Shown here piece after piece: positions 6,409 to 39,600 of a stretch of 64,000 bases of DNA. Under the pieces are notes generated by a model, which was not told the DNA's origin, made no database searches, and saw only the letters and a program-made list of their open reading frames with translations. The stretch comes from Patescibacteria group bacterium (GTDB taxonomy: Bacteria; Patescibacteriota; Patescibacteriia; SBBC01; CAIJZX01), in assembly GCA_038065275.1 (NCBI GenBank), contig JBBTRH010000013.1, forward strand, positions 32,106 to 96,105, read 5' to 3'. The position numbers were made by a program, and so were the translations under genes. Within the stretch, counting starts at the first letter, position 1. Each line of letters starts with the position of its first letter.

Positions 6409-6410
6409 GA

Positions 6411-19899: not shown

Positions 19900-20059
19900 A
19901 CTGCTGGCCACCGTTACATCCAGGCGGAATGTGAGCCGATGCGATGAGGGTGGCGTCCCGATGATACCAACAATCAGACCGGCAGGCAAGCTCGGGATGC
20001 TCAGGGGTTTAGATTCGAGTCCCGAGCCTTACCCGCCGGCCAAACGGGCTAACGCGAAC

Positions 20060-20707
20060 CTATGTTTTTAACTTGAAGCTCCTGGCCACTTCGTAGAACT
20101 TATCTTTGTACCCGACCCACTTCTCAGTAGTGGTATTAAACGACACAACGTAGTACTTTCCGTCCGCCAAATAGACGGCCATCAAAACCGTGTACGCTAC
20201 GTCCTGCTGGCTCAACTCCATGGCCGCGAACTTGGCCGGCAGTCCGTTGACAGTTTCATTGCTGGCGGCGAAGGTTTTAGCCGAGGGAATTGACGAGGTG
20301 ATGCCGTTGACCGTCGTCTGGTAGACCTGGTCGAGCGTCTTGCCGTTCGCATTGTCGAACGATACCGCGATGTAGGATTTGAAATTGATCTTGGCGGCGG
20401 CGCTACCGGCGGCGTGTGATTCTTTCAAATTTTGGAACGAGGCCAACGTGCCGGGTATCTGGCCCTGGACCCACCCGGCTGGCTGGATGACGGAAAAATC
20501 ATCGCTGACGTACAGGCTGTCGGCCGCAGTATCGGCGTTGACGTTAGCATTCACCGTAGCATTCGTCACGTTAGCGTCGTTGACCGTCTTCGTGTCAGTA
20601 GAATTTCGGGTGAACCAATAAATCCCGAATCCGGCGATGACCGCCATCACGACAACAACGACCGTCAGTATGGCGACGTTGGGTTTTTTCACTGCTGGCT
20701 GGTCCAT
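20060..20707 (-). CDS. membrane-anchored hypothetical protein (possible PsbP-like/DUF1795 fold)
   Basis: Single N-terminal TM. Asn/Thr-rich linker followed by a globular domain. Weak resemblance only. Confidence 0.35.
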   Translation of the reverse strand: MDQPAVKKPNVAILTVVVVVMAVIAGFGIYWFTRNSTDTKTVNDANVTNATVNANVNADTAADSLYVSDDFSVIQPAGWVQGQIPGTLASFQNLKESHAAGSAAAKINFKSYIAVSFDNANGKTLDQVYQTTVNGITSSIPSAKTFAASNETVNGLPAKFAAMELSQQDVAYTVLMAVYLADGKYYVVSFNTTTEKWVGYKDKFYEVARSFKLKT

Positions 20708-20727
20708 GTGTTTTTCTTAATCTTGGT

Positions 20728-21054
20728 CTACCATTTGTGTGACTTGTAGGAGGGTGCGCCGTACGAAGGTGTCTTGTAACTCGGCAGCTTGTAGGTCGGC
20801 GCCGAATACTTTGGTACGGCGTACTTGTACGGATTCACGGTACCAATGTTGCCGGTGTATGGGTTATAATTACCCCTCGTTGAGTAGTTATCGAATTTCG
20901 TACTGTTTGGAATGGTCCGGTAGTAGCCTTGGACATAGGCTCCATTGCTTTTTGTGTATCCTTTGACATAAGAGGGTGCCGCCTGAGCAAAAAACGGGGT
21001 TGACAAGCCAAAAAGCACGACCGTTGTGAGAAGAGGAAAAAATAACTTTTTCAT
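20728..21054 (-). CDS. small secreted Tyr-rich protein with P(S/T)YK repeats
   Basis: Clear signal peptide (MKKLFFPLLTTVVLFGLSTPFFAQA). C-terminal repeats KYSAPTYKLPSYKTPSYGAPSYK. Confidence 0.5.
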   Translation of the reverse strand: MKKLFFPLLTTVVLFGLSTPFFAQAAPSYVKGYTKSNGAYVQGYYRTIPNSTKFDNYSTRGNYNPYTGNIGTVNPYKYAVPKYSAPTYKLPSYKTPSYGAPSYKSHKW

Positions 21055-21102
21055 AGGCCACCAATCAGTTGTCCATGGTTTAGACTACTCTTGATTCGCT
21101 AA

Positions 21103-21519
21103 AAAAGCAAACGAGGCCCACCGCTCCGGAGGTCGCCCCGCACCACCCGTCGCTACGTCTACTACAACTGCACGCAAGCTCGCGCCATTGATTGCGGAGA
21201 ACCGTACATCCGCGAAGAAGAACTAGTGGCGGAACTACTCAGAACGGTAGACAAGTTGCCGCTCAACCAGATCACCGCTCGGGAAAAATTACAACAGGAG
21301 ATGGAGCGGTTCCGGCGGTTTACCGAGAGCGTCCTGGGCGACCAACTGGCGAAGACCAAGATCGGCCATATCGATCTACGGAGCTTTGCTAAATACATTC
21401 TCCAAGAGGGATCACGGGAAGAAAAGCGTGAACTGCTGTCCTGCCTGAAAACCAAACTGTTTCTCAAGGACCGCCACATTCTGACCGAGCTCCCGAAGGC
21501 CGAAAAAACCTTGCAATAA
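21103..21519 (+). pseudogene. 3' fragment of a large serine recombinase gene (zinc-ribbon plus coiled-coil C-terminal region only)
   Basis: Translation gives ...RRYVYYNCTQARAIDCGEPY..., the recombinase zinc beta-ribbon, followed by a coiled-coil tail. No N-terminal catalytic domain. Preceded by an in-frame stop at 21100. Marks the left edge of the low-GC island. Confidence 0.5.
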
Positions 21520-21802
21520 TCACTAATTTACACTAAACTATGACTTAGTTCGACGCTTTTTCTAACGCATCTCTAGCTCGAACGTTCTTTCTCCACACTA
21601 ATTGCCTAAACCGTTCTTCGGAACGGCATGGCATCACAATAACCCTGCAAGGTATAGAGCTCCTAGTCAGAGCATCCTTGCAGGGTCATGCGCCGAAAGG
21701 TGTATGGGTGGTCGTAAGGCCATCGCTGGCTAGGGGCTTTGTGTATATACGCACGATACACAAAAACCCTTCCATGATCACCTATCAGAAAGGGAATTCT
21801 CT

Positions 21803-22132
21803 ATGGCTCTTATAAAATGTCCTGAATGCGGTACTGAAGTTTCAGACAAGGCGCTCCAGTGCCCGAAGTGCTCCTATCCGATCTCTACCGCACCATCTCA
21901 ACAGACTCCGGAAGATATCCAGACCATCCAGCAAACAAGCAAGCGATTAAAGAAACAAATCATCATTGCCATTGTGCTTATTATTGGCGGCATTATTTTA
22001 ATATCAACTGGCGCAAACGCAGATAAGGAAGCAACCAGGGCGCTACTGTTCACATTCGGCACACTAGCCGCCCTGCTCGGAGCCATCTGGTATATCATCG
22101 TCCGTATCAGGATTTGGTGGAATCACCGGTAA
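21803..22132 (+). CDS. zinc-ribbon (CPECG...CPKC) membrane protein with two TM helices
   Basis: N-terminal CxxC-x14-CxxC, then two hydrophobic helices. First gene of the low-GC island. Confidence 0.5.
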   Translation: MALIKCPECGTEVSDKALQCPKCSYPISTAPSQQTPEDIQTIQQTSKRLKKQIIIAIVLIIGGIILISTGANADKEATRALLFTFGTLAALLGAIWYIIVRIRIWWNHR

Positions 22133-22163
22133 TAAATATATCAACGGTAATTCACACGCGAAC

Positions 22164-22778
22164 GTGAATCCCCAAGGAAAGGCGCAACAATGGCTTGAAC
22201 CGGTACTGGACCAGGCGGCCAGAGTTTTGGTAAAGAACATCCTAAATGATCCAAAGCATCCGCGGTACATCACAGAGCGAGAAGCTGAATTGATCCATCG
22301 AGGCGTCGAGCAAGGAATCATCCAGATCGAGGGGAACATCTTCCGCCTGCCAACCACCAACAAAGGACGATATGACGCATTCACTCTGAACCGTGAGTAC
22401 TTCGTGCAGTTTGCGACCCTCGTTGACCTTATCACCGAACACGGCTACCCAGCTTCTGATTGCCGGTTTGAATACCACTTGATGGATATCTGCGTCTTTA
22501 AAGGTGGCCAGCCCTACATTTACATTGAAACGAAGGTCGGCGACCAGTCTTCGAAGAAGCTGATCGAGGAAATGACCAATACCTACGCGAGCCAGCTGGT
22601 GTCGTTCTTGGACAAACCGGATCGTGGGATCGATGCTTTGCGCAAAGCCAAGTACATATTTCGTGATCGTCCAAAATACTTCGGGGTGATCAACCCCAGC
22701 ATGAGATACTTCTACGAAGTGCATTATACCGAGACTGGTTTTTCCTTAGAAACCATTTCCGATCTTCCGAAAAACTAA
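22164..22778 (+). CDS. hypothetical protein
   Basis: 204 aa ORF in the low-GC island. No motif recognised. Confidence 0.4.
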   Translation: MNPQGKAQQWLEPVLDQAARVLVKNILNDPKHPRYITEREAELIHRGVEQGIIQIEGNIFRLPTTNKGRYDAFTLNREYFVQFATLVDLITEHGYPASDCRFEYHLMDICVFKGGQPYIYIETKVGDQSSKKLIEEMTNTYASQLVSFLDKPDRGIDALRKAKYIFRDRPKYFGVINPSMRYFYEVHYTETGFSLETISDLPKN

Positions 22779-22824
22779 CGGGGCAATAACTGAGGAAGAT
22801 ATCGTCTTCGTCTGGGCATATTCT

Positions 22825-23583
22825 TTATTTATTCTCCACGTTGTTCACCGCATCTCGATAGGCGCAATAATCACAATCCTCTCCAGCTGGCGGGATGGCT
22901 TTGCTATTTAAACAGGCATGGGCGTCAATAATGGCTTGCTCGACCCACGAATCATCGCCTTCGTAGGGTATGACCTTAATATCGAATTCCAGTTTCCCAT
23001 CGAATGCTTCGGCATCGCTATTACCATTGCAGTAAACGAAATATCCCGTATTAGAAACCTTGAACCCATTACGGCGAAATAGCCACTGGTAGACTTCCAT
23101 CTGCCGCTTGTACCCGATCTGCCAATCGGCATCAAGATTGACCTCGTCCTTCTTTGAGGTAGCCTTATAGTCGACGATGATCAGCTCTCCATTCGGACGA
23201 ACCCACAGGTCGTCTACTCCGCCAGTAATCTTGAAATTGGTATCGGCATGATGATATGTTACGCCCCGTCGTAACGAGTCCCGCCATTCATCGATTTTCT
23301 CATGTGCCAGCGGGATAGCATCGATCTTATACTTCTTTTGTAAAGGATGCTTTGTGCCCTTAGCGCGGTGGATATCAAATTCCCGCTTAAGAAGTTCATC
23401 AACGGCAGAATTGAGCGAAAACGGGTACCCTGGCGGTTGAGCTATCCCAAGTCGTCGATCTAAGTAGAAACATCGTGGACAGTTCAGGAAGAGGTCTATC
23501 TTTGAGCGACTGAGTCGAAACGGTTCGGTACTGGCCGGATCGTAGAGATTCTTGACTCTTTGTGGGGTGTAGTATTTGGACAC
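22825..23583 (-). CDS. Cas4/RecB-like PD-(D/E)xK nuclease with predicted 4Fe-4S cluster (no CRISPR locus nearby)
   Basis: N-terminal CPRC. Nuclease motifs GGVDDLWV (D) and IIVDYK (DxK). QMEVY (QxxxY). C-terminal C-x12-CDYC cysteine triad. Confidence 0.6.
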   Translation of the reverse strand: MSKYYTPQRVKNLYDPASTEPFRLSRSKIDLFLNCPRCFYLDRRLGIAQPPGYPFSLNSAVDELLKREFDIHRAKGTKHPLQKKYKIDAIPLAHEKIDEWRDSLRRGVTYHHADTNFKITGGVDDLWVRPNGELIIVDYKATSKKDEVNLDADWQIGYKRQMEVYQWLFRRNGFKVSNTGYFVYCNGNSDAEAFDGKLEFDIKVIPYEGDDSWVEQAIIDAHACLNSKAIPPAGEDCDYCAYRDAVNNVENK

Positions 23584-23662
23584 GTTCGTTAGATTTGCAT
23601 TATCGTTTCTGGTTCCATCGGTTATCTAAATTTCGCCTTCGAAGATGAGGATTTTGGGCATG

Positions 23663-23968
23663 TTATCGTTGCCACCACCGAATAAACTTTCCGATAAGCC
23701 AAACGAAGCCACCAAACACAGACAAACTAAAGCCCTCCGCATAACGCGCACTTTGAAAGCTTAGGTTTGTTTTGTCGGATCCCATAAAATACAATCCCGA
23801 GAAAGCAATTAATGCACCAATAATCATTACAATTTTCCCAAATTTGCTACTCGAAGTTGAAACAGAAGTCCGACCACGAAAGAATAAACTGATAATAAAA
23901 AATATCCCGCTAATAACTAGGCCTTGGAAAAAACTTTTATCAAAGAAATCCATACTATTCGCTTTCAA
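23663..23968 (-). CDS. small membrane protein (2-3 TM)
   Basis: 101 aa hydrophobic ORF downstream of hsdS. Overlaps the hsdS end by 14 nt. Confidence 0.35.
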   Translation of the reverse strand: MKANSMDFFDKSFFQGLVISGIFFIISLFFRGRTSVSTSSSKFGKIVMIIGALIAFSGLYFMGSDKTNLSFQSARYAEGFSLSVFGGFVWLIGKFIRWWQR

Positions 23969-25031
23969 ACTCCTCTCTCAAAATTCCCCGCTTCAACGCC
24001 GTAAAATCCGCCGCCTGCTTCGCCTGCAATTCCTGAAGTGCGCGGGATTTTTCGGAAAGCGCATCAAGCTTTTCAACAATCATTTTTTGTTCTACAAGGG
24101 AAGGAAGCGGAATATCCAATTTTGAATATTGTGAAATCCAATAACGTTTATGTGAAGAGTGATCTAGGTTAATAGTTTGCATCAAGTAAAACAAATACCT
24201 TGTATCTGCAACCTCCCTCTTGGCATGTAATATTTTCATTGCTGACGATTTTACCTTGAATGGAAAATCTACGTATTGGATTGCTGTAGTAAAGTCATCA
24301 AATATTATTACCGGCAGCTTTTCTTTTGGAAAGATATTTTCTGTTTCATTTGTGTTTCCTAAAATAAAAGTTTTGCCCGCGGTCAACACCGGCGTTTTAA
24401 ACGAATCAATGTAATTTTTGGAACGGACTATGTATTTGCCTGGTTGTTCATAATCTAAGGCATCCTCCAGTTTTATTTTCTGCCACCCCTTCTCTTCTCC
24501 CTCCTCAAACACCCCATGCAATGCCGCGGGCAACAGTTGCGCGGCAAGTCTCGCCGACTCCGCACGAAGTCGGGATGTTTCGTCAATTTTTGCAAATTGC
24601 TGTTCTATTTTCGCGACGATCTTCTTTTGTTCGACGAGGGGTGGGACTTTGACTTCCAAATTTGAATATTCTGAAATCCAGTAACGTTTATGGGTTGCAT
24701 GATTAACATGCAACGTCTGCAATAACAAATAGAAGTATTTAGGATCCGCAATGCCCTCTTTCGGGTGTAGAATCTTCATTGCCGAAGATTTTACCTTGAA
24801 TTGAAAGGTGACAAATTTAGTCGCGGTGGTGAAATCATCAAAGATAATTACTGGCAGCCTCTCGGAGGGAAATATATTGTCCTTTTCGGCAGTATTCCCT
24901 AAAACAAAAGTTTTTCCAGCCGTTAGCACAGGAGTTTGATAATCCTTATTGTAGTGCTTAGTTTTTACGATATACTTTGTAGGCTGCTCGTAATCTAGCA
25001 CTTCACCGAGTTTTTTTGTGGGGTAGGTCAT
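23955..25031 (-). CDS. hsdS: type I restriction-modification specificity subunit HsdS
   Basis: Two duplicated target-recognition halves (YEQPxKYIVxxKxY...VLTAGKTFxLGNT...LPVIIFDDFTTA repeated) separated by a coiled-coil spacer. Confidence 0.85.
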   Translation of the reverse strand: MTYPTKKLGEVLDYEQPTKYIVKTKHYNKDYQTPVLTAGKTFVLGNTAEKDNIFPSERLPVIIFDDFTTATKFVTFQFKVKSSAMKILHPKEGIADPKYFYLLLQTLHVNHATHKRYWISEYSNLEVKVPPLVEQKKIVAKIEQQFAKIDETSRLRAESARLAAQLLPAALHGVFEEGEEKGWQKIKLEDALDYEQPGKYIVRSKNYIDSFKTPVLTAGKTFILGNTNETENIFPKEKLPVIIFDDFTTAIQYVDFPFKVKSSAMKILHAKREVADTRYLFYLMQTINLDHSSHKRYWISQYSKLDIPLPSLVEQKMIVEKLDALSEKSRALQELQAKQAADFTALKRGILREEFESE

Positions 25032-25952
25032 TTATTCGTCGTCTTTTTGGTACTTGATACGATTTTCATTTTTTTTAATTAGGTGTAAACATGCCAACAA
25101 GGTCGCATAGTAAAAGTAAAACATCCAACTAAGCCAAACCGTCTTATCATAATTTGTTTTCTGTTGCTTATTGGCGTGACGAATTCCAAAGTTGTTAGCT
25201 ATATTAAATAGATCGCTTTCATCCTTTGAGTTAAGAACTTTTTCAATTTTTGGTTTTAAGTGCTCAAAACAATCAGCAAGAGCACGGATCGCATCCTCTC
25301 GGTCACTTATTGTTGAGCCATATTTTCTAAATTTGTTTGCCGCATGTTCCATTTTTTCCCTTACCGTTACGTCGCCTGTGGGGACCGGCGATTCAGAAAT
25401 ATTTCGTAAGTGGGATGGTAACAAAGTCAATATTTCACCTTTTGTACTTAGCTCAAAACCGTCTCCATAGTCGTTAAGGAATTGGTTTATCTCTTGAGCA
25501 AATTCAATGGGGCCTAATCCCAAATCATCAAAACGTGTATAGTGCCAACCACAACTATTCCAATTATGGTAAGTGGCGCCTTGTTCAAGGGGTAATGAAA
25601 TATGATCAAAAAAGAATTCGATAATATCGAACAAATCATCTTCGGAATATCCCTTATACTTCTCCGAAAACGGCCAAACATTTGCCCTCCGAAGCCTACG
25701 AAGTACATATCCTTCGATATTTGTTCCGACTTTCCCTGGAATATCCCCGTCTGTACAGTTAGTGCCAAGGAATTCCTGAAAGTACCCTCGCGTTGAAAAG
25801 TCTTGCCAAATACTAAAAACAATTTCTTTCAAAGAATCGAGAGAGATTTTTTGTGAGTGGTCTTTTCTTAAAGAATAGTATTTTCTTGCCACAATGGTGA
25901 TGCTATGGATTGCAATACTTTTTGTAGAGCTTACGGGTAGTAACCACAGCAC
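25032..25952 (-). CDS. uncharacterised protein nested in the type I R-M operon (candidate defence/Abi component; REKMEH resembles an HEPN Rx4H motif)
   Basis: 306 aa. Start abuts the hsdS start (25031/25032). No known domain recognised. Confidence 0.45.
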   Translation of the reverse strand: MLWLLPVSSTKSIAIHSITIVARKYYSLRKDHSQKISLDSLKEIVFSIWQDFSTRGYFQEFLGTNCTDGDIPGKVGTNIEGYVLRRLRRANVWPFSEKYKGYSEDDLFDIIEFFFDHISLPLEQGATYHNWNSCGWHYTRFDDLGLGPIEFAQEINQFLNDYGDGFELSTKGEILTLLPSHLRNISESPVPTGDVTVREKMEHAANKFRKYGSTISDREDAIRALADCFEHLKPKIEKVLNSKDESDLFNIANNFGIRHANKQQKTNYDKTVWLSWMFYFYYATLLACLHLIKKNENRIKYQKDDE

Positions 25953-26790
25953 TCTCCACTTTGAGACTTTTTAGATAATCTTCGCTTGGAATCTTATAGT
26001 CTTTGTGCACAAACTTATTTGCCTCCACTCTTATTTGTTCGATATCATCGCATACCTGTTCAAGAAGTTCTTTGTCCTCGTGAAAGTCTGTAGATTTTGA
26101 TCGTATATTTGACAGAAGTAATTCGAGTCCACGATAACGGCCTTTGTTTTTATCATACCAAATTTCATGATTACCTTGATTGTACGAGCCATTAACGATC
26201 TTCGGAAATACAATTTCGCAAATTCTAACCACCAACGCCTCTAACAATTTTCGACTAAGTATTATTACTGCGAGCAGCTGTCCATTTAAATAGGACTCAT
26301 TAATCTCTTTGCGAATATAATCAAGAAACAAATCATTAAAATCATATGGAAGGTAGTCCGGCCCAACAAAATCTTCTTCAATTTCTAGAACTGATAATTT
26401 TTTACTTGCATTATCGAAATTAACACCCGTTGCCCGAAGAAGGTTAACTATTAATTGATGCCAGTTTTTAATGTACTCGCCATAATAGTTCCATCCATCG
26501 TTTCGGGTACCGATTATTTTTGAGTCAAAAACAATTTCTTGAAGTATTGGGAGGTATTTGTATGAAGGAACCGTTTGCATGAAGTTAGCAAAATCATAAT
26601 TTGGTTCACTCATGAAGGAGTACAATGGAATACTATATGGCGATCCTCCTGCAGCTAGTTCTGAATACTTTCCACTGTTGTATTCTATCCCGAACTTCTT
26701 GAGAAAAATTTTAAAGTCTTCCGCACTATAGCAGTGTATGTATAATCGCTCAGCGTACACCCAGATCTCTTGGTTGAGTTTAAGACTCAT
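25903..26790 (-). CDS. uncharacterised protein nested in the type I R-M operon (candidate defence/Abi component; DUF4145/HEPN-like is possible)
   Basis: 295 aa. Start overlaps the hsdM stop (ATGA, 26787-26790). C-terminal helical region with RVEANKFVH. Confidence 0.45.
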   Translation of the reverse strand: MSLKLNQEIWVYAERLYIHCYSAEDFKIFLKKFGIEYNSGKYSELAAGGSPYSIPLYSFMSEPNYDFANFMQTVPSYKYLPILQEIVFDSKIIGTRNDGWNYYGEYIKNWHQLIVNLLRATGVNFDNASKKLSVLEIEEDFVGPDYLPYDFNDLFLDYIRKEINESYLNGQLLAVIILSRKLLEALVVRICEIVFPKIVNGSYNQGNHEIWYDKNKGRYRGLELLLSNIRSKSTDFHEDKELLEQVCDDIEQIRVEANKFVHKDYKIPSEDYLKSLKVESAVVTTRKLYKKYCNP

Positions 26791-28208
26791 AAAAGTTTCT
26801 CAATTTCGGTCAACATTACCGAAATATGACTCTCCGTATTTTGCATTTCTTTTAATAGCCCCTTAGGAGTTTTATGATCGGTCGCAATTCCAGCGACCGG
26901 ATTCTTACAATCCAAATTGTAATTCCGCTTCTGAATTTCTTTGATCGACACTTTCCACGCATGCTCATTCGTTTTCCGATTCTTCCACCATACCTTCACT
27001 GGTTCAAACTCTTCGCTTCGGATCGGCCGTCCTTTCGTGTATTGCTTCATGCCTTCTGGCAACGGCAATTCGTAGTACCAAATCTCTTTGGTCGGCGTGC
27101 CTTTTTGGAAAAACAGCAGATTCGTATTGACGCCAGCATACGGATTAAAGACGCCTTGCGGGAGACGAACGATCGTTTGGAGATTACATTTTTCGAGAAG
27201 CTCCCGTTTAATTGCCGTTTTCACGCCCTCGCCAAAGAGCGTTCCGTCGGGCAGGACAATCCCCGCTCGGCCGGTTGGCTTCAGTAAATTCATGAACAGC
27301 ACGAGGAAAAGGTCGGCGGTTTCTTTCGTCCGAAATTCGCGCGGGAAGTTCTGCTCGGTGCCATCCTTTACATATCCTCCAAACGGTGGATTTGCAAGGA
27401 TAATATCAACACGGTCTTTTGGACCATACTCGCGCAATGGCTTCGAGAGGGCATCGCCACGATGAATCTGGTCAGGCGCTTCAACGCCGCGCAGAATAAG
27501 GTTTGTCACCGCGAGCGTAAACGGGAGTTGCTTTAATTCGTTCCCATGCAGCGATTGTTGCAGACGCTGCTCTTCCTTGCGCGTTTTGACCTGGGTACGA
27601 ATATGTTCAAGAGCACTGACAAGGAATCCGCCAGTCCCACAGGCCGGATCGAGAACGATTTCACCGAGCTTCGGGTTAACCATCTCAACCACAAATTTTG
27701 TAAGCGCTCGTGGAGTATAGAATTCTCCGTAGTTTCCAGCGCTTTGCAGCTCCTTGAGGAGATGTTCGTAAATATCATTGAACTCGTGTCGGTCCCCTTG
27801 CTTATTAAAATCGACTTCGTTCAGTTTATTGACGACTTGCCGGATGAGCGTTCCGGACTTCATGTAATTATAAGAGTCAGCAAAAACCTCTTTGATCAGG
27901 AGACCACGCGTGTCGTCGGTTGCGACCTTTAGATCTTTTAATCCGGGAAAAAGTTGATTGGTAATAAAATTCAACAAGTCGTCACCAGTTATTCCTTCCG
28001 GATCTGCGGCCCAGTTTCGCCAGCGAAGTTTTTTTGGAATTGCTGAAACATACTTCGGATTAACGAGTTCAGCAAATGTTTCTTGATCATCAATAATTTT
28101 CAAGAACAACATCCAGACGAGTTGATTCAACCGCTGTGCGTCACCGTCGACGCCCTGGTCTTTCCACATAATGTCTTGTATCGCCTTGATAACGGCTTGA
28201 AGTGACAT
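26787..28208 (-). CDS. hsdM: type I restriction-modification N6-adenine DNA methyltransferase HsdM
   Basis: Motif I LDPACGTGGF and motif IV LANPPFGG. HsdM N-terminal domain. Confidence 0.92.
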   Translation of the reverse strand: MSLQAVIKAIQDIMWKDQGVDGDAQRLNQLVWMLFLKIIDDQETFAELVNPKYVSAIPKKLRWRNWAADPEGITGDDLLNFITNQLFPGLKDLKVATDDTRGLLIKEVFADSYNYMKSGTLIRQVVNKLNEVDFNKQGDRHEFNDIYEHLLKELQSAGNYGEFYTPRALTKFVVEMVNPKLGEIVLDPACGTGGFLVSALEHIRTQVKTRKEEQRLQQSLHGNELKQLPFTLAVTNLILRGVEAPDQIHRGDALSKPLREYGPKDRVDIILANPPFGGYVKDGTEQNFPREFRTKETADLFLVLFMNLLKPTGRAGIVLPDGTLFGEGVKTAIKRELLEKCNLQTIVRLPQGVFNPYAGVNTNLLFFQKGTPTKEIWYYELPLPEGMKQYTKGRPIRSEEFEPVKVWWKNRKTNEHAWKVSIKEIQKRNYNLDCKNPVAGIATDHKTPKGLLKEMQNTESHISVMLTEIEKLL

Positions 28209-28211
28209 AGA

Positions 28212-30569
28212 TTAGGCGTAGAGTGTTTCTTGAATTTTGTTGATGACGACGAAGTATTGCTCTCGACCACCGAAGATATCATTCACGATTTGCACCGGCG
28301 TGCCGAATGATGTAAACGGCGACACCTCAAGGTCTTTAATATCATCAATCGCCGTGATGCCTTGATCTTCATATTTCTCGAGTAAGGCATCAATCACCTC
28401 GCGGGCTTTCCCTTCGTACTTCGCAAAGTAATCGAGCTTCTTCACATTATTCGCCCGTTCTTTCCGGGTCAGCGGCGTTTTTCCGTACGCAACGTGACAA
28501 ATGAGGTCAAACGGGTCCAGACCTTTGCCAACTTCAGCTGCGATGTCATCAAAGAACACACCCCGTTGTTCAAGTTCGGTGATGATCGCCTCTTTCTTGT
28601 CAGCTTTTGTCCAGGCAGTCAAAAACTCATCAAGCGATCGATATTCTTTGAGGATATTCTGTTTCGTGTAATCCTTCAGCGATTCCGTAATGAGCTTCCC
28701 ATCTTCACCAATATACTGAACGCGTTCGTTAATCACCTGAACCGGAACGTCGCGCACTACGTACTTTTTGACTGGCTCACCGCCAATCGGGGGCCATGGA
28801 CTAATAAGGGTACCTCCTGGTTCTTGCCCGGGTGTCCCTGTACCTCCGTTCTCCGGGGGTTCTACTGGCGGAACAATTGGATCTCCTCCTTTGGGCTCGT
28901 AAATAACAACTGGATCACCGTCAAAGTCAGGATCGGCAAACAGTTCCGTCACGCCCCGGAAGTCGAGAATCGTAAAGAATAGTTTTCCGTAATCTTCGCG
29001 CACACGGGTGCCGCGTCCGATGATCTGCTTGAATTCGGTCATGGATTGAATATTTGCATCCAGGACGATCAGCTTGCACGTCTGCGCATCGACGCCCGTG
29101 GTCATCAGTTTTGATGTCGTGGCAATCACCGGGTATGGACTTTCTGGATCGATAAAGTGGTCAAGTTCACCAGCCGATTCTGGGTTATCGCCCGTAATCC
29201 TGACGACGTAGCGATGATTTGCTCCAGCGAGTTCCGGGTTCGCGTTGACGAGCGCCTGTCGCATTCGTTCAGCGTGATCGATGTCGACGCAGAAGACAAT
29301 AACTTTCTGCATCGGATCGGTGGCCTGCATGTATTCGGTAATCTTCTCGGCCACCAGTTTCGTCCGCTCATCAATCACCAATTCTCGATCAAAATCTTTT
29401 CGGTTGTAGATACGATCTGGAATCTCATTCCCATGAACATCCGTCTTTCCTTGTTCTGGGCGGTAGCCCTCAACATCGCGATCAAACGTCACACGTATGA
29501 CTTTGTACGGCGCGAGAAATCCATCATCAATGCCCTGGCGGAGTGAATAGGTATAGATTGGTTCACCAAAATACGTTTGGGTCGAGATATCTTTCGTTTC
29601 TTTCGGCGTAGCTGTTAACCCAATCTGGGTCGCGCTTTGGTAGTAGTCTAAGACATCGTGCCACAAGGCATTTTCCCGTGCGCTGCCGCGATGGCACTCG
29701 TCGATAATGACGAGATCGAAGAAGTCAGGTGAAAACTGCTTGAACGTCTGTTTCTCTTCTTCAACTCCGGTCACGCTTTGATACAGCGCGAGATATATTT
29801 CGTAGGATTTATCTGCGTTGCGATTTTTGATCTTGTACATCTTATCGCCAAACGGCTTGAAGTCGTTCATGACCGCTTGGTCAGCTAAAATGTTCCTATC
29901 CACGAGAAAGAGGATGCGTTTGGCTGTTTTTGCTTTCCATAACCGCCAGATGATTTGAAATGCCGTATACGTTTTCCCCGTTCCGGTCGCCATAACCAAC
30001 AGCAAGCGTTTTTGCCCTTTCGTAATTGCTTCGATGGTTCGATTAATGGCGACGCGTTGAAAATATCGCGGCTCTTTTCCGTTCAGCTCCTGGAAGTAGT
30101 CTTGTTCAACGATCGATCGGGCGTCTGAAGTAATTTGATGGTTGGCAAGATACTGCTGATAGAGGTCTTCCGGACTTGGAAATGCATCTAAAGCGATTTC
30201 TTCTTCGTGCACTTTTCCCTTCGGAAGACGAACGTGGGTTAAGAATCCGCTTCCGTTCGAACTGTAGACGAAAGGAATATCAAGCACATCTGCGTAGCCG
30301 AGGGCTTGCTGCATTCCATCACCCACGCCGTAACTCGCATCTTTCGCTTCAATGATTGCCAATGGGAGATTATTTTTGTAGTAAAGAATGTAGTCCGCGC
30401 GCTTTTTTTCACCTCGTGTCACGGTTTTACCACGAACAATGATCCGGCCAGCGGTGAACGAAACCTCTTCCCGAATTTGGGTCTGCAAATCCCATCCAGC
30501 TTTTACCAAAGCAGGGGTTATATATTTCGTACAAATATCGCGTTCGGACAATGATTCTTTAGCCACCAT
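28212..30569 (-). CDS. hsdR: type I restriction endonuclease subunit HsdR (compact form)
   Basis: N-terminal PD-(D/E)xK (AIIEAKDA). SF2 helicase motifs MATGTGKT and IIDECHRG. Pro/Gly-rich linker before the C-terminal domain. Confidence 0.9.
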   Translation of the reverse strand: MVAKESLSERDICTKYITPALVKAGWDLQTQIREEVSFTAGRIIVRGKTVTRGEKKRADYILYYKNNLPLAIIEAKDASYGVGDGMQQALGYADVLDIPFVYSSNGSGFLTHVRLPKGKVHEEEIALDAFPSPEDLYQQYLANHQITSDARSIVEQDYFQELNGKEPRYFQRVAINRTIEAITKGQKRLLLVMATGTGKTYTAFQIIWRLWKAKTAKRILFLVDRNILADQAVMNDFKPFGDKMYKIKNRNADKSYEIYLALYQSVTGVEEEKQTFKQFSPDFFDLVIIDECHRGSARENALWHDVLDYYQSATQIGLTATPKETKDISTQTYFGEPIYTYSLRQGIDDGFLAPYKVIRVTFDRDVEGYRPEQGKTDVHGNEIPDRIYNRKDFDRELVIDERTKLVAEKITEYMQATDPMQKVIVFCVDIDHAERMRQALVNANPELAGANHRYVVRITGDNPESAGELDHFIDPESPYPVIATTSKLMTTGVDAQTCKLIVLDANIQSMTEFKQIIGRGTRVREDYGKLFFTILDFRGVTELFADPDFDGDPVVIYEPKGGDPIVPPVEPPENGGTGTPGQEPGGTLISPWPPIGGEPVKKYVVRDVPVQVINERVQYIGEDGKLITESLKDYTKQNILKEYRSLDEFLTAWTKADKKEAIITELEQRGVFFDDIAAEVGKGLDPFDLICHVAYGKTPLTRKERANNVKKLDYFAKYEGKAREVIDALLEKYEDQGITAIDDIKDLEVSPFTSFGTPVQIVNDIFGGREQYFVVINKIQETLYA

Positions 30570-30668
30570 AGCAACAATTTACTCCTTTTTCGCTAAGAAA
30601 TCAAGGAAAACAGATGTCGGAGTGAGCACGGTGACGTAAGCCACCGTGCTCAAAACCTTTCGGTTATC

Positions 30669-30959
30669 TCAACGACATTCGACGAGGCTAAGGAGGTTAT
30701 TTGTCTCCCGCCCATCCGAGACGGTACGAACGAATGGGTTCAGGTTTCGTGAGACTGCCGTTTGGACATACACCTTATGCCCGAAGGCATCTGTCACATA
30801 GGCAATCCCATGCTGGTCTTTGATCCAATTGTATAATTGGATCCGCGACCACTTTCCCTGAATCCCGGTATCGTCTTCAACCCACCCGAGAAACGAGATC
30901 GCCTCATGAGGGTTGTCATGGTAACCGTTATCCTTATTGATGCAGGTAATCCGGATCAT
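30669..30959 (-). CDS. DUF3892 family small protein
   Basis: MIRITCINKDNG... and C-terminal ...NNLLSLVEC match the DUF3892 pattern as remembered. Confidence 0.5.
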   Translation of the reverse strand: MIRITCINKDNGYHDNPHEAISFLGWVEDDTGIQGKWSRIQLYNWIKDQHGIAYVTDAFGHKVYVQTAVSRNLNPFVRTVSDGRETNNLLSLVECR

Positions 30960-30971
30960 ACGATTCGAGGG

Positions 30972-31214
30972 TTAGTGTTTCGTGTCATGGGACGAGCGCG
31001 GGTCGTTACCGGGCGAGACTGTATCGCTATCCCGAATCGACCCCTTCGGGCTGTGAATACGGACTTCACCGCCACCGCTATTTGCTGACATCTCTTTGGC
31101 GGCTTTCTCGGCTTCTTTCTGAGTGTCAAAGTACCCGCTGACGCGACCAGCGCCCTCGCGCTTTGCACCCCATTTATCGATCTCTTTGTTCTTCGTGACG
31201 TGATAGTTGGCCAT
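30972..31214 (-). CDS. DUF2188 family small protein (ORF-track extension to 31490 is probably not translated)
   Basis: MANYHVTKNKEIDKWGAKREGAGRVSGYFDTQKEAEKAAKEMS...GNDP matches the DUF2188 consensus as remembered. Confidence 0.5.
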   Translation of the reverse strand: MANYHVTKNKEIDKWGAKREGAGRVSGYFDTQKEAEKAAKEMSANSGGGEVRIHSPKGSIRDSDTVSPGNDPRSSHDTKH

Positions 31215-31526
31215 AGTATTGTATGACGTAGCTAATGATAAGATCCATGACGTTTGATTCGGAAGGATTGTTTCCCAAGCATGGGCGGAACCAACCAGGC
31301 TAGATTGTTTGTGATAACGGGCAAATAGATAAGCAAGTAAGAGTGTGGTATAATCCGAGTACCAAAAAGTCTGCCATCCTAGCGATTTTTTTGGCCTGAC
31401 AGGGGCGTTAACCCTGTTCGGATTTGAAGGAACATGGTCGTCTCGACCATGTTCCTTTGCTTCATAGTCGAGCGCCGTGACTTCTAGCAAATAGGGTAGC
31501 AGGGTGGCTTGAAAATGTCAAAGAGC

Positions 31527-31564
31527 AATGTACAGTTGACAGTACATTATTATCATGGTAGGAT
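31527..31564 (+). promoter_or_regulatory. sigma70-type promoter (TTGACA-17-TAGGAT) with an overlapping inverted repeat AATGTACA-N7-TGTACATT (candidate XRE operator)
   Basis: TTGACA at 31536-31541. 17-nt spacer. TAGGAT at 31559-31564, 6 nt before the ATG at 31571. Palindrome flanks the -35. Confidence 0.5.
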
Positions 31565-31570
31565 ATCCAC

Positions 31571-31909
31571 ATGGACATATCCCCAACCATGATGCTTCAT
31601 AGGGGTATCGGGAGGAAAATTCGTGAACGCCGGAAGGAGCGCAACCTACGTCAAGCCGAACTAGCTGTAGCAATACACTGTTCGCGTGCAACCTTGGTCA
31701 ATGTTGAGAGTGGGCGACAACAGCCCACGTTGGATTTGCTTTACAAACTTTCATCTCAGTTGCATTGCTCATATATAGATTTACTACCCACTGAAGAAGA
31801 GATTGAAAAAATGAAGACCGAAGCGGGGTCTGCTATCATGACGCCCGAAAAGGAAAAAAGTATCATTTCTGATTTAAAGGCTAAAGCAAAGGAAAGGGAG
31901 GTGAATTGA
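31571..31909 (+). CDS. XRE-family helix-turn-helix transcriptional regulator
   Basis: HTH_3 pattern LRQAELAVAIHCSRATLVNVESGRQQP. Confidence 0.8.
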   Translation: MDISPTMMLHRGIGRKIRERRKERNLRQAELAVAIHCSRATLVNVESGRQQPTLDLLYKLSSQLHCSYIDLLPTEEEIEKMKTEAGSAIMTPEKEKSIISDLKAKAKEREVN

Positions 31910-32424
31910 AAATGACAACACCAGTAATAAATATTGAGCAGGAAACGAAAAAAGTCCGGGTAGCCTGTGGAGCTACCACAATACCCGTTGACGTTAGAAA
32001 GATCATTGGGTCATTAGGTCTCAAGTTAATGTCAACTGACCTGAATGATTCACTATCAGGAGCTTTCTTAAGGAAAGAAAAAATTGTGGTTGTAAACAAG
32101 AATCACTCATTACTCCGAAAAAGATTTACCATTGCCCACGAAATTGGACACTACAAATTACACGAAACTGAGAATGACAAAGAATTTATTGATGGGATAT
32201 TTAAAAGAGAAAAAGGGGCAAACGCTAACACTCTAAAAGTTGAGATGGAAGCAAATCAATTTGCCGCCTCCCTCTTAATGCCAAGGGACGAAATTATTCA
32301 AGAGTTCCATAAGCAGGATCCAGTTACAGGCGATTACATTACTGATTTATCGGAGAAGTTCAAAGTGAGTCATGAATCTATGAACTACCGGTTAATCAAT
32401 TTAGGGCTTACAGTTCCGCAATAG
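31906..32424 (+). CDS. ImmA/IrrE-family metallopeptidase (DUF955)
   Basis: HEIGH zinc motif (FTIAHEIGHYKLH). Overlaps the XRE gene stop (ATGA). Classic XRE-ImmA pair. Confidence 0.78.
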   Translation: MKMTTPVINIEQETKKVRVACGATTIPVDVRKIIGSLGLKLMSTDLNDSLSGAFLRKEKIVVVNKNHSLLRKRFTIAHEIGHYKLHETENDKEFIDGIFKREKGANANTLKVEMEANQFAASLLMPRDEIIQEFHKQDPVTGDYITDLSEKFKVSHESMNYRLINLGLTVPQ

Positions 32425-32496
32425 ATTACGGATATTATAAAGATCAACAACCACCGACATCAGTCGGTGGTTGCTTAGATAAGCAAAATGCCACTC

Positions 32497-32525
32497 TACC
32501 CAGGAACAGGATTCGAACCGACAAA
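32497..32525 (-). other. degenerate partial copy of a tRNA 3' end (T-arm plus acceptor: GTCGGTTCGAATCCTGTTCCTGGGTA)
   Basis: Resembles the 3' end of the interrupted tRNA-like gene at 32768 (GTCGGTCCGAATCCGACCCTGGGAGCCA). Candidate integration scar. Confidence 0.35.
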
Positions 32526-32578
32526 AACATTGGCGTTACGAACGTACTTATGCGTTTTTTACGCAAAAAGCCCCACCG

Positions 32579-32650
32579 CTCCGGGGACAGGATTCGAACC
32601 TGTGACCAATCGCTTAACAGGCGACCGCTCTACCGCTGAGCTACCCCGGA
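32579..32650 (-). tRNA. tRNA-Asn (anticodon GUU)
   Basis: Hand-folded cloverleaf: acceptor UCCGGGG/CCCCGGA, D-stem GCUC/GAGC, anticodon stem GUCGC/GCGAU with loop CUGUUAA, T-arm ACAGG-UUCGAAU-CCUGU, discriminator G. Confidence 0.8.
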
Positions 32651-32767: not shown

Positions 32768-33023
<256 letters not shown>

Positions 33024-36643: not shown

Positions 36644-39600
36644 TTATTTGTTTAGCTTATCAATCTCCCCCATTATTCGTCCGGTTTCGAGTAGCGCCAC
36701 GATCATCTGCTGATAATGCTCAATGTCTTCGTTGGTCAGGGTACGGCCTTTGCGGTCTTTCAGCCACTTTTGCGCCGGTTGATACCCGCCGATATAGAAA
36801 TTCCATGCTAATTCAGGAACTTGGCCGAAATACTGCTCGGTATTAATGAACACTTTGTTGTCTTTGTATGCTATTTTCTCGACCATATCCGATCCGGTCG
36901 CCGGATAGGTTGTAATGAATTTATTCACCTGCGGCGATTCGAGCAGGTGGAGCAACCGCAATTCGGTCCCTAGTGCTACTAGTTTTTTGAAAGTTATTGC
37001 ATCTTTCGGATACGGTACTCTAGGAAAATCAATCTTTAGAAATTCTTTGTATTTATCGCGATAACTCGGTGAGTGTAAAACGGCGTAAATATAATCAAGG
37101 ATATTTTCCGGCGTTACTTTACCGACCCTTTTTTCTATATCGCTAACAATTTCTTTTATTAGATTTGGTGTTTTTGTGCCATCTTCATAATAGAGGTACA
37201 ACGGAAAAAAGCGAGAATTATCAAAAGGAGAAATGGCGTCTTTGTCTAGTATCTTGTTAGAAACAAAAACATTGTTCACGTTCCCTCTGCGCGAGTTTCT
37301 TACTGTAATCAATGAGAGATTTGCATTCAACATGCTTTTCATTAAAGGAGATCTCGGGTAGGCCATGAAACCCTTTGTTTTTCCGGAATAATAGGTAAAG
37401 CGTTGTTCAAATGGATGATAGGTAACCTGCACGATTTGGCCTTTCCCCCCTTGAACATCTTCCCTAGCTAGATTAACCGTCCAATCCCTTCCATCGTCAG
37501 CTATATCGTATTTGGATCGTAGTTCTTTTATTTCAAGGTTGGTAAAATCGTTCAAAACATTGGCAATCTCATTGTTAGTAAATTGATATACCAGACCATC
37601 TCGCTTAGTTTGTATTCCAGAGTTAAATTCATTAAAAACTTCGTCGATTTTCAATCCTTTTCGATATTCTTCTTCATCGTTAAAATCTTTCGGCACAAAG
37701 AAATAATTCGGCTCCGGACAATCGAGTTTTACCCATTTGAGATTTTTAATATCGCTTTCATTAAGCTTGGTGAATTTATCTTCCCGCTTACCGTAAATTT
37801 CCGCGTGATGAACCTGGCCAAGGCCGGTTTTCTCTTTCGCGGTGCGGACAAAGATGGATATCGCGACGCCCTGCTGGATGTCGAACACGTTCTCGTCTTG
37901 TCCCCCGTCCGGAGCTTGTTCTTTCTTTTTGGAGTTGCCGTGCAAGTCAAGAATGTAAACATCGTCAAATGTTTCCAACAGGTGCTTTCGCATCTGGCGG
38001 TGCGTAATGCCGTCGATATAGGAATTATTGGTGATCATGGCGACGACGCCGCTCTTGTTTTTCTCGATAAAATGTTCGGCGTAGCGAATAAACTTAATGT
38101 AATCGTCGTCCAGGTTGATTTTCCGCTCGCCTAGTCCGCGTTTATAGTCCTGGATCAAATTCTGTATCCACGCGCCCTTGTTCGACGAGCTGACGCTGTA
38201 CGGCGGATTGCCGATAACCACCATGATCGGTGTGTCGTTCTTGATGACCGCCGCGCTTTTCGCTTCCTCGGCGATCGCGCCGCCGAAACCCAGGCTGAAG
38301 ATTTCGCCCTGGGGTTTTGGATCCTCAAGCGAATTCGTGAGAAATACTTTCAGGCGGGTCTTGCCGTTTCGTGTTTCATTAAAGTGCTTGAACCCGGTAT
38401 CCCGCAGCTTCATGCTGATCTTGAGGTGCGCAATCGTATATGGCACCATCATCAGCTCGAAGCCATGCAATCGTGGTAGTAGCTCATGGTGTACATATGA
38501 CGGCCAGCCGCCGCCTTGCCCGTGTTCCTGATACGCCTGGTATATCTTGTCGATCGTGGCGCTGATGAACGTTCCGGTGCCCGCCGCAGGATCAAGGATT
38601 TGTACCTTATGCTTCCCGTCATCTAGCTTAGCTGTATCCGCCAAGCCCCGCGCCAAGCCGAAATCCCGGCGCAGAATCTCGTCAACAGAGCGGATGATGA
38701 AATTCACGACCGGCAGCGGCGTATAGTACGCGCCCATCCGTTTGCGTAAGACAGGATCGTATTCTTTTAGGAAGTCCTCGTAGAAATGAATGATCGGATC
38801 GGCGTCGTCCAGAAACTCCTCGACCAGTTTCTTGATATCGGCGTGCTGGAACACCTCGCAGAGCTCGTCCACAATGTAGCCGAGCCGCTTGTCGAAATTT
38901 ACCCCGGCGATATGGTCGAAGAATTGTTTTAGGAACGGATTCGACGCGGGCACCAGCTGGTCGGCTTCCTGTCGCGAAAACGTGGCGGGAGTTTCATCGT
39001 TATACCGCGCCGTGAACAGTCCGTACACCAGGGTCTGGGCATACATGTCGGCAAACGCGTCAATGGTCAGGTCGTGGACCAGCATTTTCTTGATCGCTTC
39101 GTACAACTGCATAATTTCCGTGTTTTTTTCCGATTCATGCGACAGAAACTGCCGCGCGTTGTCGCGAATGCGCTGACCTTTGCCGCCCATGATCTTAGCC
39201 AGGTGTTTTCCCGATTTGATCGGTTCTTTGTGCGACTGCGCGAAATCCACCGAGGTTTTCGCCAGATGTTCGTACTCGGCCGGAACTGGCGTGATGGTGC
39301 GCTGTTTTAGGTCGTGCTTCGCGATTACGATCGGCTCTTCATACCGCAAGCCGTTGCGATAAAAACGGAATTCGACATAATCCGTCAGCACCAAATTGGC
39401 GTAGCCGTAATATCGCGCCATTTGTTCCGACTTTTCGATTTTATCTAGCGGCACGCCGATATCTTTAACCTCAATGTACAAAATCGGCACGTCGTGGCTG
39501 AGCACAACAAAATCAGGTTTATTGCCCTGTCGAGCTTTCGCGTCATGCAAAATATGGACATTTTTGACCGCGGCAAAAACCTCTTTTAGCAGAGTTTCGA

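Follow-up and report, generated by a model that had tools for sequence, protein, structure and literature searches.

The 64,000-nucleotide (nt) stretch of DNA analysed here (the window; contig JBBTRH010000013.1 of assembly GCA_038065275.1) carries an 11.4-kb segment of foreign composition between a tRNA-Asn gene and a remnant of a tRNA-Asn 3′ end. The segment is probably the immobilised remnant of a phage-like element beside the 3′ end of tRNA-Asn, carrying defence cargo, including a type I restriction-modification (R-M) system, that would be under the control of a regulatory pair of the CapH/CapP kind. It is flanked by a tRNA-derived repeat, ends inside a serine-recombinase gene that has intact relatives, is absent from the closest related genomes, and has a parallel with an intact recombinase at the same locus of another genome.

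The host is an uncultured, high-GC Candidatus Kerfeldbacteria-like bacterium (Patescibacteria). The UPF0182 protein encoded to the left of the segment (17101–19989) has its closest relatives in Candidatus Kerfeldbacteria metagenome-assembled genomes (MAGs), whose isolate names give a GC content of 55–58%, while more distant matches come from other Patescibacteria. Two of the island proteins are recorded in NCBI as hypothetical proteins AAB402_03630 and AAB402_03635 of a Patescibacteria group bacterium. A separate assembly (Logan) of run ERR3858126 is 100% identical to window 17614–30707, including the truncation junction described below; this run is possibly also behind the window's own assembly.

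Composition and borders of the island

The flanks have a GC content of 57–61%, against 35–54% between ~21.1 and ~32.5 kb (44–52% at 21–23.6 kb, 35–40% at 23.6–27.0 kb, 43–54% at 27–31.5 kb and 37–44% at 31.6–32.4 kb), and the right-hand boundary is sharp. A first-pass annotation, made from the letters of the DNA, had described a sharp fall to about 35–45% at ~21.5–32.4 kb; the fall is confirmed, but values of 35–45% are limited to 23.6–27.0 kb and the peptidase gene described below, the rest lying at 44–54%. Codon usage, proposed there as a check, likewise sets the segment apart: GC at third codon positions (GC3) is 0.72–0.77 in the host core (UPF0182, RpoD, DnaG and a PsbP-like protein) and 0.35–0.66 in island genes. 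Among the latter it is 0.66 in the recombinase fragment, 0.60–0.63 in the DUF2188, DUF3892 and 204-aa (amino acid) genes, 0.51–0.52 in hsdR, hsdM, the Cas4-like gene and the zinc-ribbon gene, 0.45 in the XRE gene, and 0.35–0.43 in hsdS, both nested genes, the small tail open reading frame (ORF) and the peptidase gene. GC and GC3 thus differ both from the core and among the island genes, and the island is therefore foreign and internally mosaic.

On the right, the island is faced by the 3′ end of tRNA-Asn(GTT) (32578–32650, minus strand; ARAGORN; Rfam tRNA model, 73 bits), the putative integration target. On the left, a 22-nt scar of a tRNA-Asn 3′ end (remnant B, 21114–21135, minus strand; CGACCTCCGGAGCGGTGGGCCT on that strand) forms the limit of the island and its distal direct repeat. 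Indeed, 21114–21129 matches 32569–32584, which covers the tRNA 3′ end and its trailer, at 15/16 nt, 13 nt of it exact; the first-pass annotation had suggested a search for such repeats and had not seen the left copy. An equally good match to the tRNA end was given by none of the 306 other 400-nt segments of the window and by 1 of 2000 shuffles. A counterpart of scar B, GGTTCGACCTCCGGAGCGGCTGGGC, lies downstream of tRNA-Asn in the related genome L002 (20/21 match); the scar is therefore older than the island, and the left limit is an ancestral tRNA scar. The adjacent 15-nt spacer-like sequence (21136–21150; ACGGGTGGTGCGGGG on the minus strand) is similar to sequence preceding tRNA scars elsewhere, resembling, as read from the printed sequences, TCGTTGTGGTGCGGG before a truncated tRNA copy at 32768–32810 and TCGTTGTAGTGCGGGG in the related genome L003, and is probably ancestral too rather than recombinase-derived. 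At the right end, a degenerate copy of the tRNA-Asn T arm and 3′ end (remnant A, 32500–32519, minus strand; 18/20 identity to 32581–32600) lies 58 nt beyond the tRNA 3′ end. The trailer is collinear with L002 as far as remnant A, which places the island proper at ~21151–32499. A terminator-like hairpin with a 13-bp stem (32446–32475) stands between the peptidase gene and the tRNA.

The tRNA-Asn gene and the degenerate 3′-end copy that had been reported at the right edge are both present, but the supposed tRNA cluster consists of one functional-looking tRNA gene and at least four tRNA-Asn-derived scars. Between tRNA-Asn and rpoD lies a 5′-truncated tRNA-Asn copy (32768–32810, minus strand), followed by a tRNA-Asn(GTT) copy with an encoded CCA (32850–33023, minus strand) that ARAGORN calls as tRNA-Asn only after two GC-rich hairpin insertions are removed, one of 30 nt in the D loop (32981–33010) and one of 69 nt in the T loop (32870–32938, −44 kcal/mol). 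The acceptor stem of the latter copy has two mismatches. Its 5′ strand, TCCCAGG, pairs perfectly with the 3′ acceptor strand CCTGGGA of the truncated copy 40 nt away, upstream of which it lies, and the truncated copy looks like the displaced original 3′ half from an old integration since almost wholly deleted. Hairpin-bearing tRNA pieces occur alike in L002 and L003, and L003 has two tandem tRNA-Asn genes plus scars like those of the window. Judged from these repeats, the site is a scar array, a much-used, recurrent integration hotspot, rather than a pristine site that received a single insertion.

The recombinase fragment and its intact relatives

The left end of the island is the 3′ fragment of a large serine-recombinase gene (21151–21519, plus strand; Pfam Zn_ribbon_recom, E=1.5e-3, below the family cutoff). 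As the first-pass annotation had observed, a stop codon stands just upstream, the open frame around the fragment running from a TAA at 21100–21102 to the stop at 21517–21519. The fragment is the last ~120 codons of the gene; by Pfam and by alignment, its Resolvase and Recombinase domains are missing, and homology extends only over the second half of the zinc ribbon and the coiled coil. Within the conserved region of the clade (...CGLCGSG...RYVYYxC...C..YIREEEL...coiled coil...EKRELL...) the window aligns only from RYVYY, the second Cys pair being kept and the first CxxC pair gone, and the second pair and coiled coil align with intact members at 37–47% identity. The 127 codons that remain are open and conserved, which fits a clean truncation rather than slow decay. 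The earlier idea of an integrated defence island with a decayed integrase is thus supported, except that the decay takes the form of one clean 5′ truncation abutting the older tRNA scar and not of point mutations. No other recombinase, and hence no functional integrase, was found among the island ORFs.

An intact progenitor family, which the first-pass annotation had proposed to look for, does exist. A word-indexed protein search with the fragment returned 75 homologues, namely 74 at 39–56% identity and the window's own 97-aa ORF (P0001, 99%), all of them short (82–220 aa). Full-length clade members of 425–446 aa were found by an exhaustive profile search, and IMG/VR viral contigs supplied 20 relatives, of which 18 are intact (430–485 aa). 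Intact members carry Resolvase, Recombinase and Zn_ribbon_recom domains. One of them, of 442 aa and with a C-terminus 44% identical to the window fragment, is encoded in the low-GC Patescibacteria MAG GCA_004196315.1 (L091). A search of PDB sequences with the fragment gave zero matches.

The start of the fragment at a tRNA scar and the uniformly short homologues raised the suspicion that the gene had been partitioned by its own integration, as in archaeal integrases of the SSV type. We rejected this: breakpoints vary even between close relatives, the other end of the island has no N-terminal half, intact genes are common in viral contigs and full-length members were found, and some of the short relatives are either genes broken into neighbouring ORFs or genes that run off the end of a contig.

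Further members of the clade are found in a variety of states. True isolated relics with ragged breakpoints lie among housekeeping genes within long contigs (L082:10001-10555, L085:10001-10477 and L117:4001-4390), whereas two genes of intact length are each broken into two ORFs, one for the resolvase part and one for the zinc ribbon (L114:3302-4471 and L116:3136-4456). P0002 and P0100 are in-frame fusions of the recombinase fragment with a truncated DNA methylase. In a viral contig (L098), an intact clade recombinase (5290–6666, plus strand) stands tail-to-tail with a second recombinase 3′ fragment (6683–7051, minus strand; 40% identical). Relics of this clade truncated at the 5′ end seem to be common in Patescibacteria genomes. 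A different serine-recombinase clade of Patescibacteria, of 500–525 aa, has its stop codon within the 3′ end of a convergent tRNA gene, with an overlap of 29–44 nt (L085:17135-18643, L089:105-1682 and L114:1-1207; tRNAs Glu, Val and one unnamed), and this location of the stop codon suggests that in that clade attP overlaps the end of the recombinase gene.

A parallel island and the element family

The genome with the 442-aa recombinase also holds an island at the same DnaG-RpoD-tRNA-Asn locus. There, DnaG, RpoD and tRNA-Asn are followed by a DKNYY protein, a homologue of the 295-aa nested gene of our island (54% identity), two small genes, a methylase-Mrr fusion, a LOOT RNA, the intact recombinase, which reads towards the tRNA, then genes of ~500 and ~150 aa, and lastly a ParB-methylase. 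The window matches L091 in order and orientation (tRNA-Asn, cargo, LOOT, recombinase), and ends inside the recombinase. Furthermore, a block of a methylase, a ~250-aa gene, a ~142-aa gene, a ~500-aa gene with a weak Terminase_6C match and the recombinase recurs in the viral loci L096 and L102 and in L116. The recurrence of this core with a terminase-like gene marks the element family as phage-like.

A LOOT RNA beside the recombinase

The first-pass annotation had not seen that the 283-nt gene-free stretch after the recombinase fragment holds a full-length LOOT RNA (Rfam RF03000; 21603–21724, plus strand; 80.9 bits against a gathering score of 46.4, E=1.6e-15, model positions 1–121). It begins 84 nt past the recombinase stop codon, on the same strand, and the region has a folding z-score of −6.3. 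To our knowledge, LOOT has been assigned neither an organism nor a function. Rfam describes it as a "metagenomic-based RNA" (PMC7779021), and in the paper that reported it the motif is named only in the supplement (Weinberg et al., 2017; PMC5737381).

In L091, LOOT (11564–11686) lies 39 nt after the intact recombinase and on the same strand. It is also present in 6 of the 20 viral loci of the clade: 48 nt downstream of the recombinase on the same strand in L101 (6738–6874), about 160–170 nt upstream on the opposite strand in L103 (2016–2132) and L104 (2426–2543), and 2.8–4.5 kb upstream on the opposite strand in L096 (691–812), L102 (806–920) and L107 (2387–2516). In every case the 5′ end of LOOT faces the conserved core and its reading direction points away from it. 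No match was found in ~294 kb of control loci, mostly Patescibacteria UPF0182 neighbourhoods together with L089, which has a recombinase of a different clade, nor elsewhere in the window. Together, these observations make the link of LOOT to the serine-recombinase element family look real.

A functional link between the two is a matter of speculation. LOOT might be a functional component of this family of phage-like elements in Patescibacteria and might act on the recombinase module or in concert with it, perhaps controlling integration, excision or lysogeny, a proposal that we put forward as a long shot. RNAs beside IscB/TnpB and IS110 genes were likewise orphans until they turned out to be partners of the enzymes encoded there. 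If the proposal were true, an intact LOOT (80.9 bits) beside a dead recombinase would hint at a role of its own. Two related ideas found no support. That recombinase 3′ fragments are kept because a downstream LOOT is under selection is not borne out by the other fragment loci (0 of 6 with LOOT), and LOOT is not an evident guide complementary to the tRNA-Asn att region, no 7-mer being shared or complementary in either the window or L091.

Related genomes and the origin of the segment

The three closest genomes by UPF0182 identity (L002, L003 and L004; 83%, 81% and 80%) belong to species different from the host. In all of them tRNA-Asn lies upstream of UPF0182. DnaG and RpoD precede it in L003; in L002 the contig edge leaves just the 3′ end of rpoD, and in L004 tblastn found no match to RpoD. 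In L004, tRNA-Asn and UPF0182 are about 330 bp apart; in L003 the interval spans 4.8 kb and encodes a metalloprotease-like protein and a heliorhodopsin, and in L002 it spans 6.9 kb, with NUDIX and sugar-modification genes. A tblastn search with every island protein gave zero matches in these loci. The comparison with relatives that had been suggested for the segment thus finds it missing from all of them, with other content or ~330 bp in its place, and since these loci are themselves variable, the site is a recurrent integration hotspot.

It is extremely improbable that no insertion took place and that the segment is an old, vertically inherited variable region with a low GC content owed to local mutation bias or relaxed selection. 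The genes for the PsbP-like and a 108-aa protein to the left of the scar are likewise absent from the three loci by tblastn, so lineage-specific content does reach beyond the low-GC part. This explanation is, however, already contradicted by a GC3 that is 0.1–0.4 off that of the core genes, by the spread of nested-gene homologues over unrelated lineages and phage families, and by the recombinase fragment, LOOT and tRNA repeats, which are hallmarks of mobile DNA.

A composite origin is a more serious alternative, though still an unlikely one. The recombinase fragment and LOOT would then be a scrap of an older phage-like element once directly against tRNA-Asn, and the R-M and CapH/CapP-like genes would have come later, in one or more separate events, through a lost integrase or homologous exchange, displacing the scrap by 11 kb. 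Consistent with this, in the viral loci L099 and L112 the recombinase ends 140–190 nt from a convergent tRNA, GC3 is 0.66 in the fragment against 0.51–0.52 in hsdR and hsdM and 0.35–0.43 in hsdS with the nested genes, the scar array shows repeated events at the site, and the 295-aa cassette (see below) clearly moves independently of its R-M host. Nevertheless, there is no internal tRNA-Asn scar between LOOT and the cargo, the two terminal copies being all that blastn-short returned; LOOT was the sole hit when 20950–21850 was scanned with Rfam by E-value; and L091 has the same order of tRNA, cargo, LOOT and recombinase with the recombinase intact. We favour a single truncated element as the source of the segment.

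Three observations concern the surroundings of the island. The heliorhodopsin gene (L003:8569-9477; Pfam E=3e-96) lies inside the variable slot between tRNA-Asn and UPF0182. The 108-aa protein (window 20728–21054, minus strand), which is secreted and rich in Tyr and Pro, matches phrog_29674 (E=6e-16), has an intermediate GC3 of 0.58 and is missing from the relatives; its gene may be a scrap of an earlier element. A second low-GC patch (~40% at 37–38 kb) contains a 1015-aa Type ISP-like fusion (36647–39691, minus strand) of N6_Mtase and a Type_ISP_C specificity domain (E=3e-82), which adjoins tRNA-Ser (39948–40036, minus strand) and is probably a second tRNA-linked defence insertion.

The R-M operon, its nested genes and the remaining cargo

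The cargo is dominated by a minus-strand gene series in the order DUF2188, DUF3892, HsdR, HsdM, a 295-aa protein, a 286-aa protein, HsdS, a small ORF and a Cas4-like nuclease. The genes from 31214 down to 23955 overlap or sit at most 99 nt apart, and the Cas4-like gene follows 79 nt further on. Searches of Pfam, PADLOC and NCBIfam bear out the gene list of the first-pass annotation, among its entries a complete type I R-M system with two nested genes on the same strand. HsdR (28212–30569) matches the EcoAI/FtnUII (type IB) family over its full length (NF046051, 1155 bits against a cutoff of 550; ResIII and EcoEI_R_C), HsdM (26787–28208) carries N6_Mtase (E=5.9e-73) and HsdM_N, and HsdS (23955–25031) has two target-recognition domains (two stretches of Methylase_S; PADLOC Specificity_I, E=2.4e-56). 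On these matches, the type I R-M system is complete and of the EcoAI type (type IB). The series opens with the DUF2188 gene (30972–31214; Pfam E=3.2e-18; PADLOC PDC-S16, E=4.4e-17), which had been read as a 172-aa ORF; the actual gene is ~80 aa, with its start presumably at MANYHV. The DUF3892 gene follows at 30669–30959 (Pfam E=1.7e-11).

Nested gene 1 (295 aa; 25903–26790) lies between hsdM and hsdS, and its product, with 155 conserved homologues, matches no Pfam, NCBIfam, PADLOC or PHROG family. A 76%-identical copy follows hsdM in L089, where the R-M subunits are only 28–39% identical to those of the window, and the gene is therefore a mobile cassette; after that copy come a 112-aa gene, a Pfam HEPN protein and then hsdS. 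Homologues also stand alone within the islands L091 and L092. The C-terminal domain appears HEPN-like: in Foldseek searches with the AlphaFold model (pLDDT 87.5), the C-terminal half matched 2q00 with a probability of 0.97 (E=0.55), Csm6 with 0.63 and a HepT toxin with 0.38, all at E>0.4. N257 and H261 are conserved in the 295-aa protein. Nested gene 2 (286 aa; 25032–25892) encodes a protein with an N-terminal domain resembling that of AbiJ (AbiJ_NTD4, E=1.7e-3, sub-threshold; PDC-S32, E=3.6e-9) and a helical C-terminal domain. It has 713 homologues and a conserved IRHH, with R238 and H239 among its conserved residues, and belongs by its best phage match to a family of unknown function (phrog_20667, E=1.9e-66); Foldseek found no PDB match to its model (pLDDT 88). 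Neither nested protein contains an ATPase domain according to Pfam, NCBIfam and PADLOC.

The series ends with a small ORF (23663–23968, minus strand, from the ORF list), for which the gene call in L001 gives 54 aa, possibly the real extent; it has no significant family match and is possibly a membrane protein. The stand-alone Cas4/RecB-like PD-(D/E)XK nuclease (22825–23583, minus strand; PDDEXK_1, E=2e-16; Cas_Cas4, E=1.1e-4; PADLOC Cas4, E=3e-10) has an IVDYK motif and CxxC...C-x12-C-x2-C cysteines that would hold an Fe-S cluster. Its NCBIfam cas4 score, 36.7 bits, is under the cutoff of 65, and no cas genes were found among the ORFs of 17–36 kb, so the gene stands without a CRISPR-cas locus. 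A 50%-identical homologue lies near UPF0182 in a Daviesbacteria genome (L022), in a different context, and was not counted as evidence for a core gene. On the plus strand, next to LOOT, are a 109-aa zinc-ribbon membrane protein (21803–22132; Pfam Zn_Ribbon_1, E=2.7e-7; PHROG matches of unknown function) and a hypothetical 204-aa protein (22164–22778; weak HSDR_N_2 match, E=0.021), which possibly has a PD-(D/E)XK fold with a D...ETK motif; codon-position GC (0.53/0.34/0.61) favours the strand of this gene over an antisense 160-aa ORF.

A CapH/CapP-like pair and its control region

At the tRNA-proximal end of the island, on the plus strand, are an XRE/CapH-like helix-turn-helix (HTH) repressor (31571–31909; HTH_3, E=2.2e-13) and an M78 metallopeptidase of the ImmA/IrrE/CapP kind with a HEIGH motif (31906–32424; Peptidase_M78, E=6.2e-24). 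The first-pass annotation had called the pair divergent; it is divergent from the DUF2188...hsdS operon, but the two genes are co-oriented with each other and overlap by 4 bp. The 356-nt control region between pair and operon (31215–31570) contains a perfect 14-bp inverted repeat with a 3-nt spacer (31427–31457; AAGGAACATGGTCG TCT CGACCATGTTCCTT), a candidate operator or hairpin, and a promoter-like TTGACA-17-TAGGAT on the plus strand (31536–31564) before the XRE gene.

According to passages of the preprint by Lau et al. (bioRxiv 10.1101/2022.04.27.489752), CapH/CapP consists of a repressor and a peptidase activated by single-stranded DNA; the pair always lies upstream of the operon that it regulates, on the opposite strand, and operons with DUF2188 or DUF3892 proteins are among its partners. 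The window matches this layout exactly, with XRE from 31571 on the plus strand, DUF2188 from 31214 on the minus strand and the type I R-M genes downstream, and damage-inducible expression of the operon is therefore proposed. By analogy, the XRE/peptidase pair would regulate the defence operon.

The pair could alternatively be a leftover of the former element, an immunity switch of the ImmR/ImmA type for excision and replication genes and not a regulator of the defence operon. The pair is tRNA-proximal and reads towards the tRNA, like the immR-immA-int genes that ICEBs1 carries, and its GC3 (0.38–0.45) differs from that of the adjacent DUF2188 and DUF3892 genes (0.60–0.63). The passages of Lau et al. 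also note that one mechanism is shared by CapH/CapP and ImmR/ImmA. Yet no excisionase or replication genes follow the pair, the best PADLOC match of the peptidase is capP (E=8e-31), and the divergent operon opens with DUF2188 and DUF3892, families that those passages place beside CapH/CapP-like pairs. A leftover switch is thus conceivable, though we doubt it, and prefer the pair as regulator of the defence operon.

Discussion

We propose that tRNA-Asn of a Kerfeldbacteria-like genome once received a phage-like element beside its 3′ end. In the family of this element, the conserved core would comprise a ParB/DNA-methylase gene and two small genes, followed by a terminase-like gene of ~500 aa and the ~440-aa serine recombinase; LOOT would often lie beside this core, and variable cargo would fill the space from the recombinase/LOOT end to the tRNA. 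One deletion reaching from the older tRNA-Asn scar into the recombinase gene would then have taken away the catalytic two-thirds of the recombinase together with all distal sequence, that is, the core module. With the catalytic part deleted, the tRNA-proximal 11.4 kb could therefore no longer excise. From this arrangement we infer which recombinase inserted the cargo, presumably the one now truncated.

The defence cargo would be read as one minus-strand operon, from DUF2188 to the small ORF and perhaps including the Cas4-like nuclease, transcribed from the control region shared with the divergent XRE/M78 pair. By analogy with CapH/CapP and ImmR/ImmA, the repressor would hold the operon low until DNA damage, through single-stranded DNA, activates the peptidase; the activated peptidase would cleave the repressor and operon expression would rise. 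The type I enzyme would restrict unmodified DNA, and both nested genes would probably provide back-up abortive-infection effectors, comparable to PrrC in EcoprrI. We take the nested genes as possibly working like PrrC, not as members of its family, because their products do not have the ATPase domain of PrrC.

Several points weigh against this picture. The integration event itself was not observed, and an empty site in the same species was not found: two JGI metagenome scans for exact matches, one to the left junction and one to this tRNA-Asn, returned zero contigs. Scar B predates the island, so that the repeat alone is no proof of creation by the element. The loci of the relatives hold other variable genes, and the "insertion" could be several successive events; likewise, the three GC3 strata within the island point to mosaic assembly. 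The fragment is tRNA-distal here, whereas the recombinase is tRNA-proximal in L099 and L112, and the fragment could thus predate the element with the R-M cargo. For the cargo, regulation by the XRE/peptidase pair is argued from analogy, and the signals for HEPN-like and Abi-like functions of the nested genes are weak (Foldseek E>0.4, Pfam sub-threshold), with no clean Rx4-6H seen by eye in the 295-aa consensus.

The locus documents a recurrent tRNA-Asn hotspot and serine-recombinase phage-like elements in Patescibacteria, a group with poorly described mobile elements and defence. A CapH/CapP-like DNA-damage switch in front of a type I R-M system, together with DUF2188 and DUF3892, would widen the range of systems tied to such a regulator. 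The 295-aa cassette moves between stand-alone island positions and the slot from hsdM to hsdS in unrelated type I systems, and it makes a good candidate for a defence or addiction gene not yet characterised. Furthermore, the orphan LOOT RNA gains a host group and a genetic neighbourhood, and its function thereby becomes testable.

Apart from LOOT and the unusual host group, the island is of an ordinary kind, tRNA-linked, R-M-centred and with a dead integrase. The high-pathogenicity island of Yersinia is an example of an element at asn tRNA genes. With such tRNA-linked islands the segment shares its location at a tRNA 3′ end, a partial tRNA 3′-end copy at the far border, deviant composition, variable cargo and close relatives that do not have it; it differs in that its only recombinase trace is a truncated serine recombinase and not a P4-type tyrosine integrase, in its host from the Patescibacteria (candidate phyla radiation, CPR), and in its whole array of tRNA-Asn scars. 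The large-serine-recombinase prophages of the phiC31, Bxb1 and A118 type have the same zinc-ribbon and coiled-coil C-terminal architecture, but here only ~120 C-terminal residues are left, and the clade travels with a ParB-methylase...terminase-like core and LOOT. The LOOT copy itself is a full-length match well over the gathering score of RF03000; what sets it apart from the motif as catalogued is its genomic address, beside a specific serine-recombinase clade in Patescibacteria elements and viral contigs.

Effectors embedded in type I loci have a classical precedent in PrrC of EcoprrI, and R-linked ORFs are likewise accessory abortive-infection genes within such loci. As in these systems, extra genes lie inside an otherwise complete hsd operon, at least one of them apparently HEPN-like, in a slot exchangeable among R-M systems; unlike PrrC, the present proteins have no ABC-ATPase domain, and two genes instead of one lie between hsdM and hsdS. 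Finally, the segment resembles CapH/CapP operons, whose relatives are ImmR/ImmA and DdrO/IrrE, in that a gene for an HTH repressor and, after it, one for an M78 peptidase with HExxH stand upstream of and opposite to an operon led by DUF2188 and DUF3892, whereas the partners described in the passages of Lau et al. are CBASS, DISARM, DUF2188/DUF3892 sets and ubiquitin-like systems, and the partner here is a type I R-M system.

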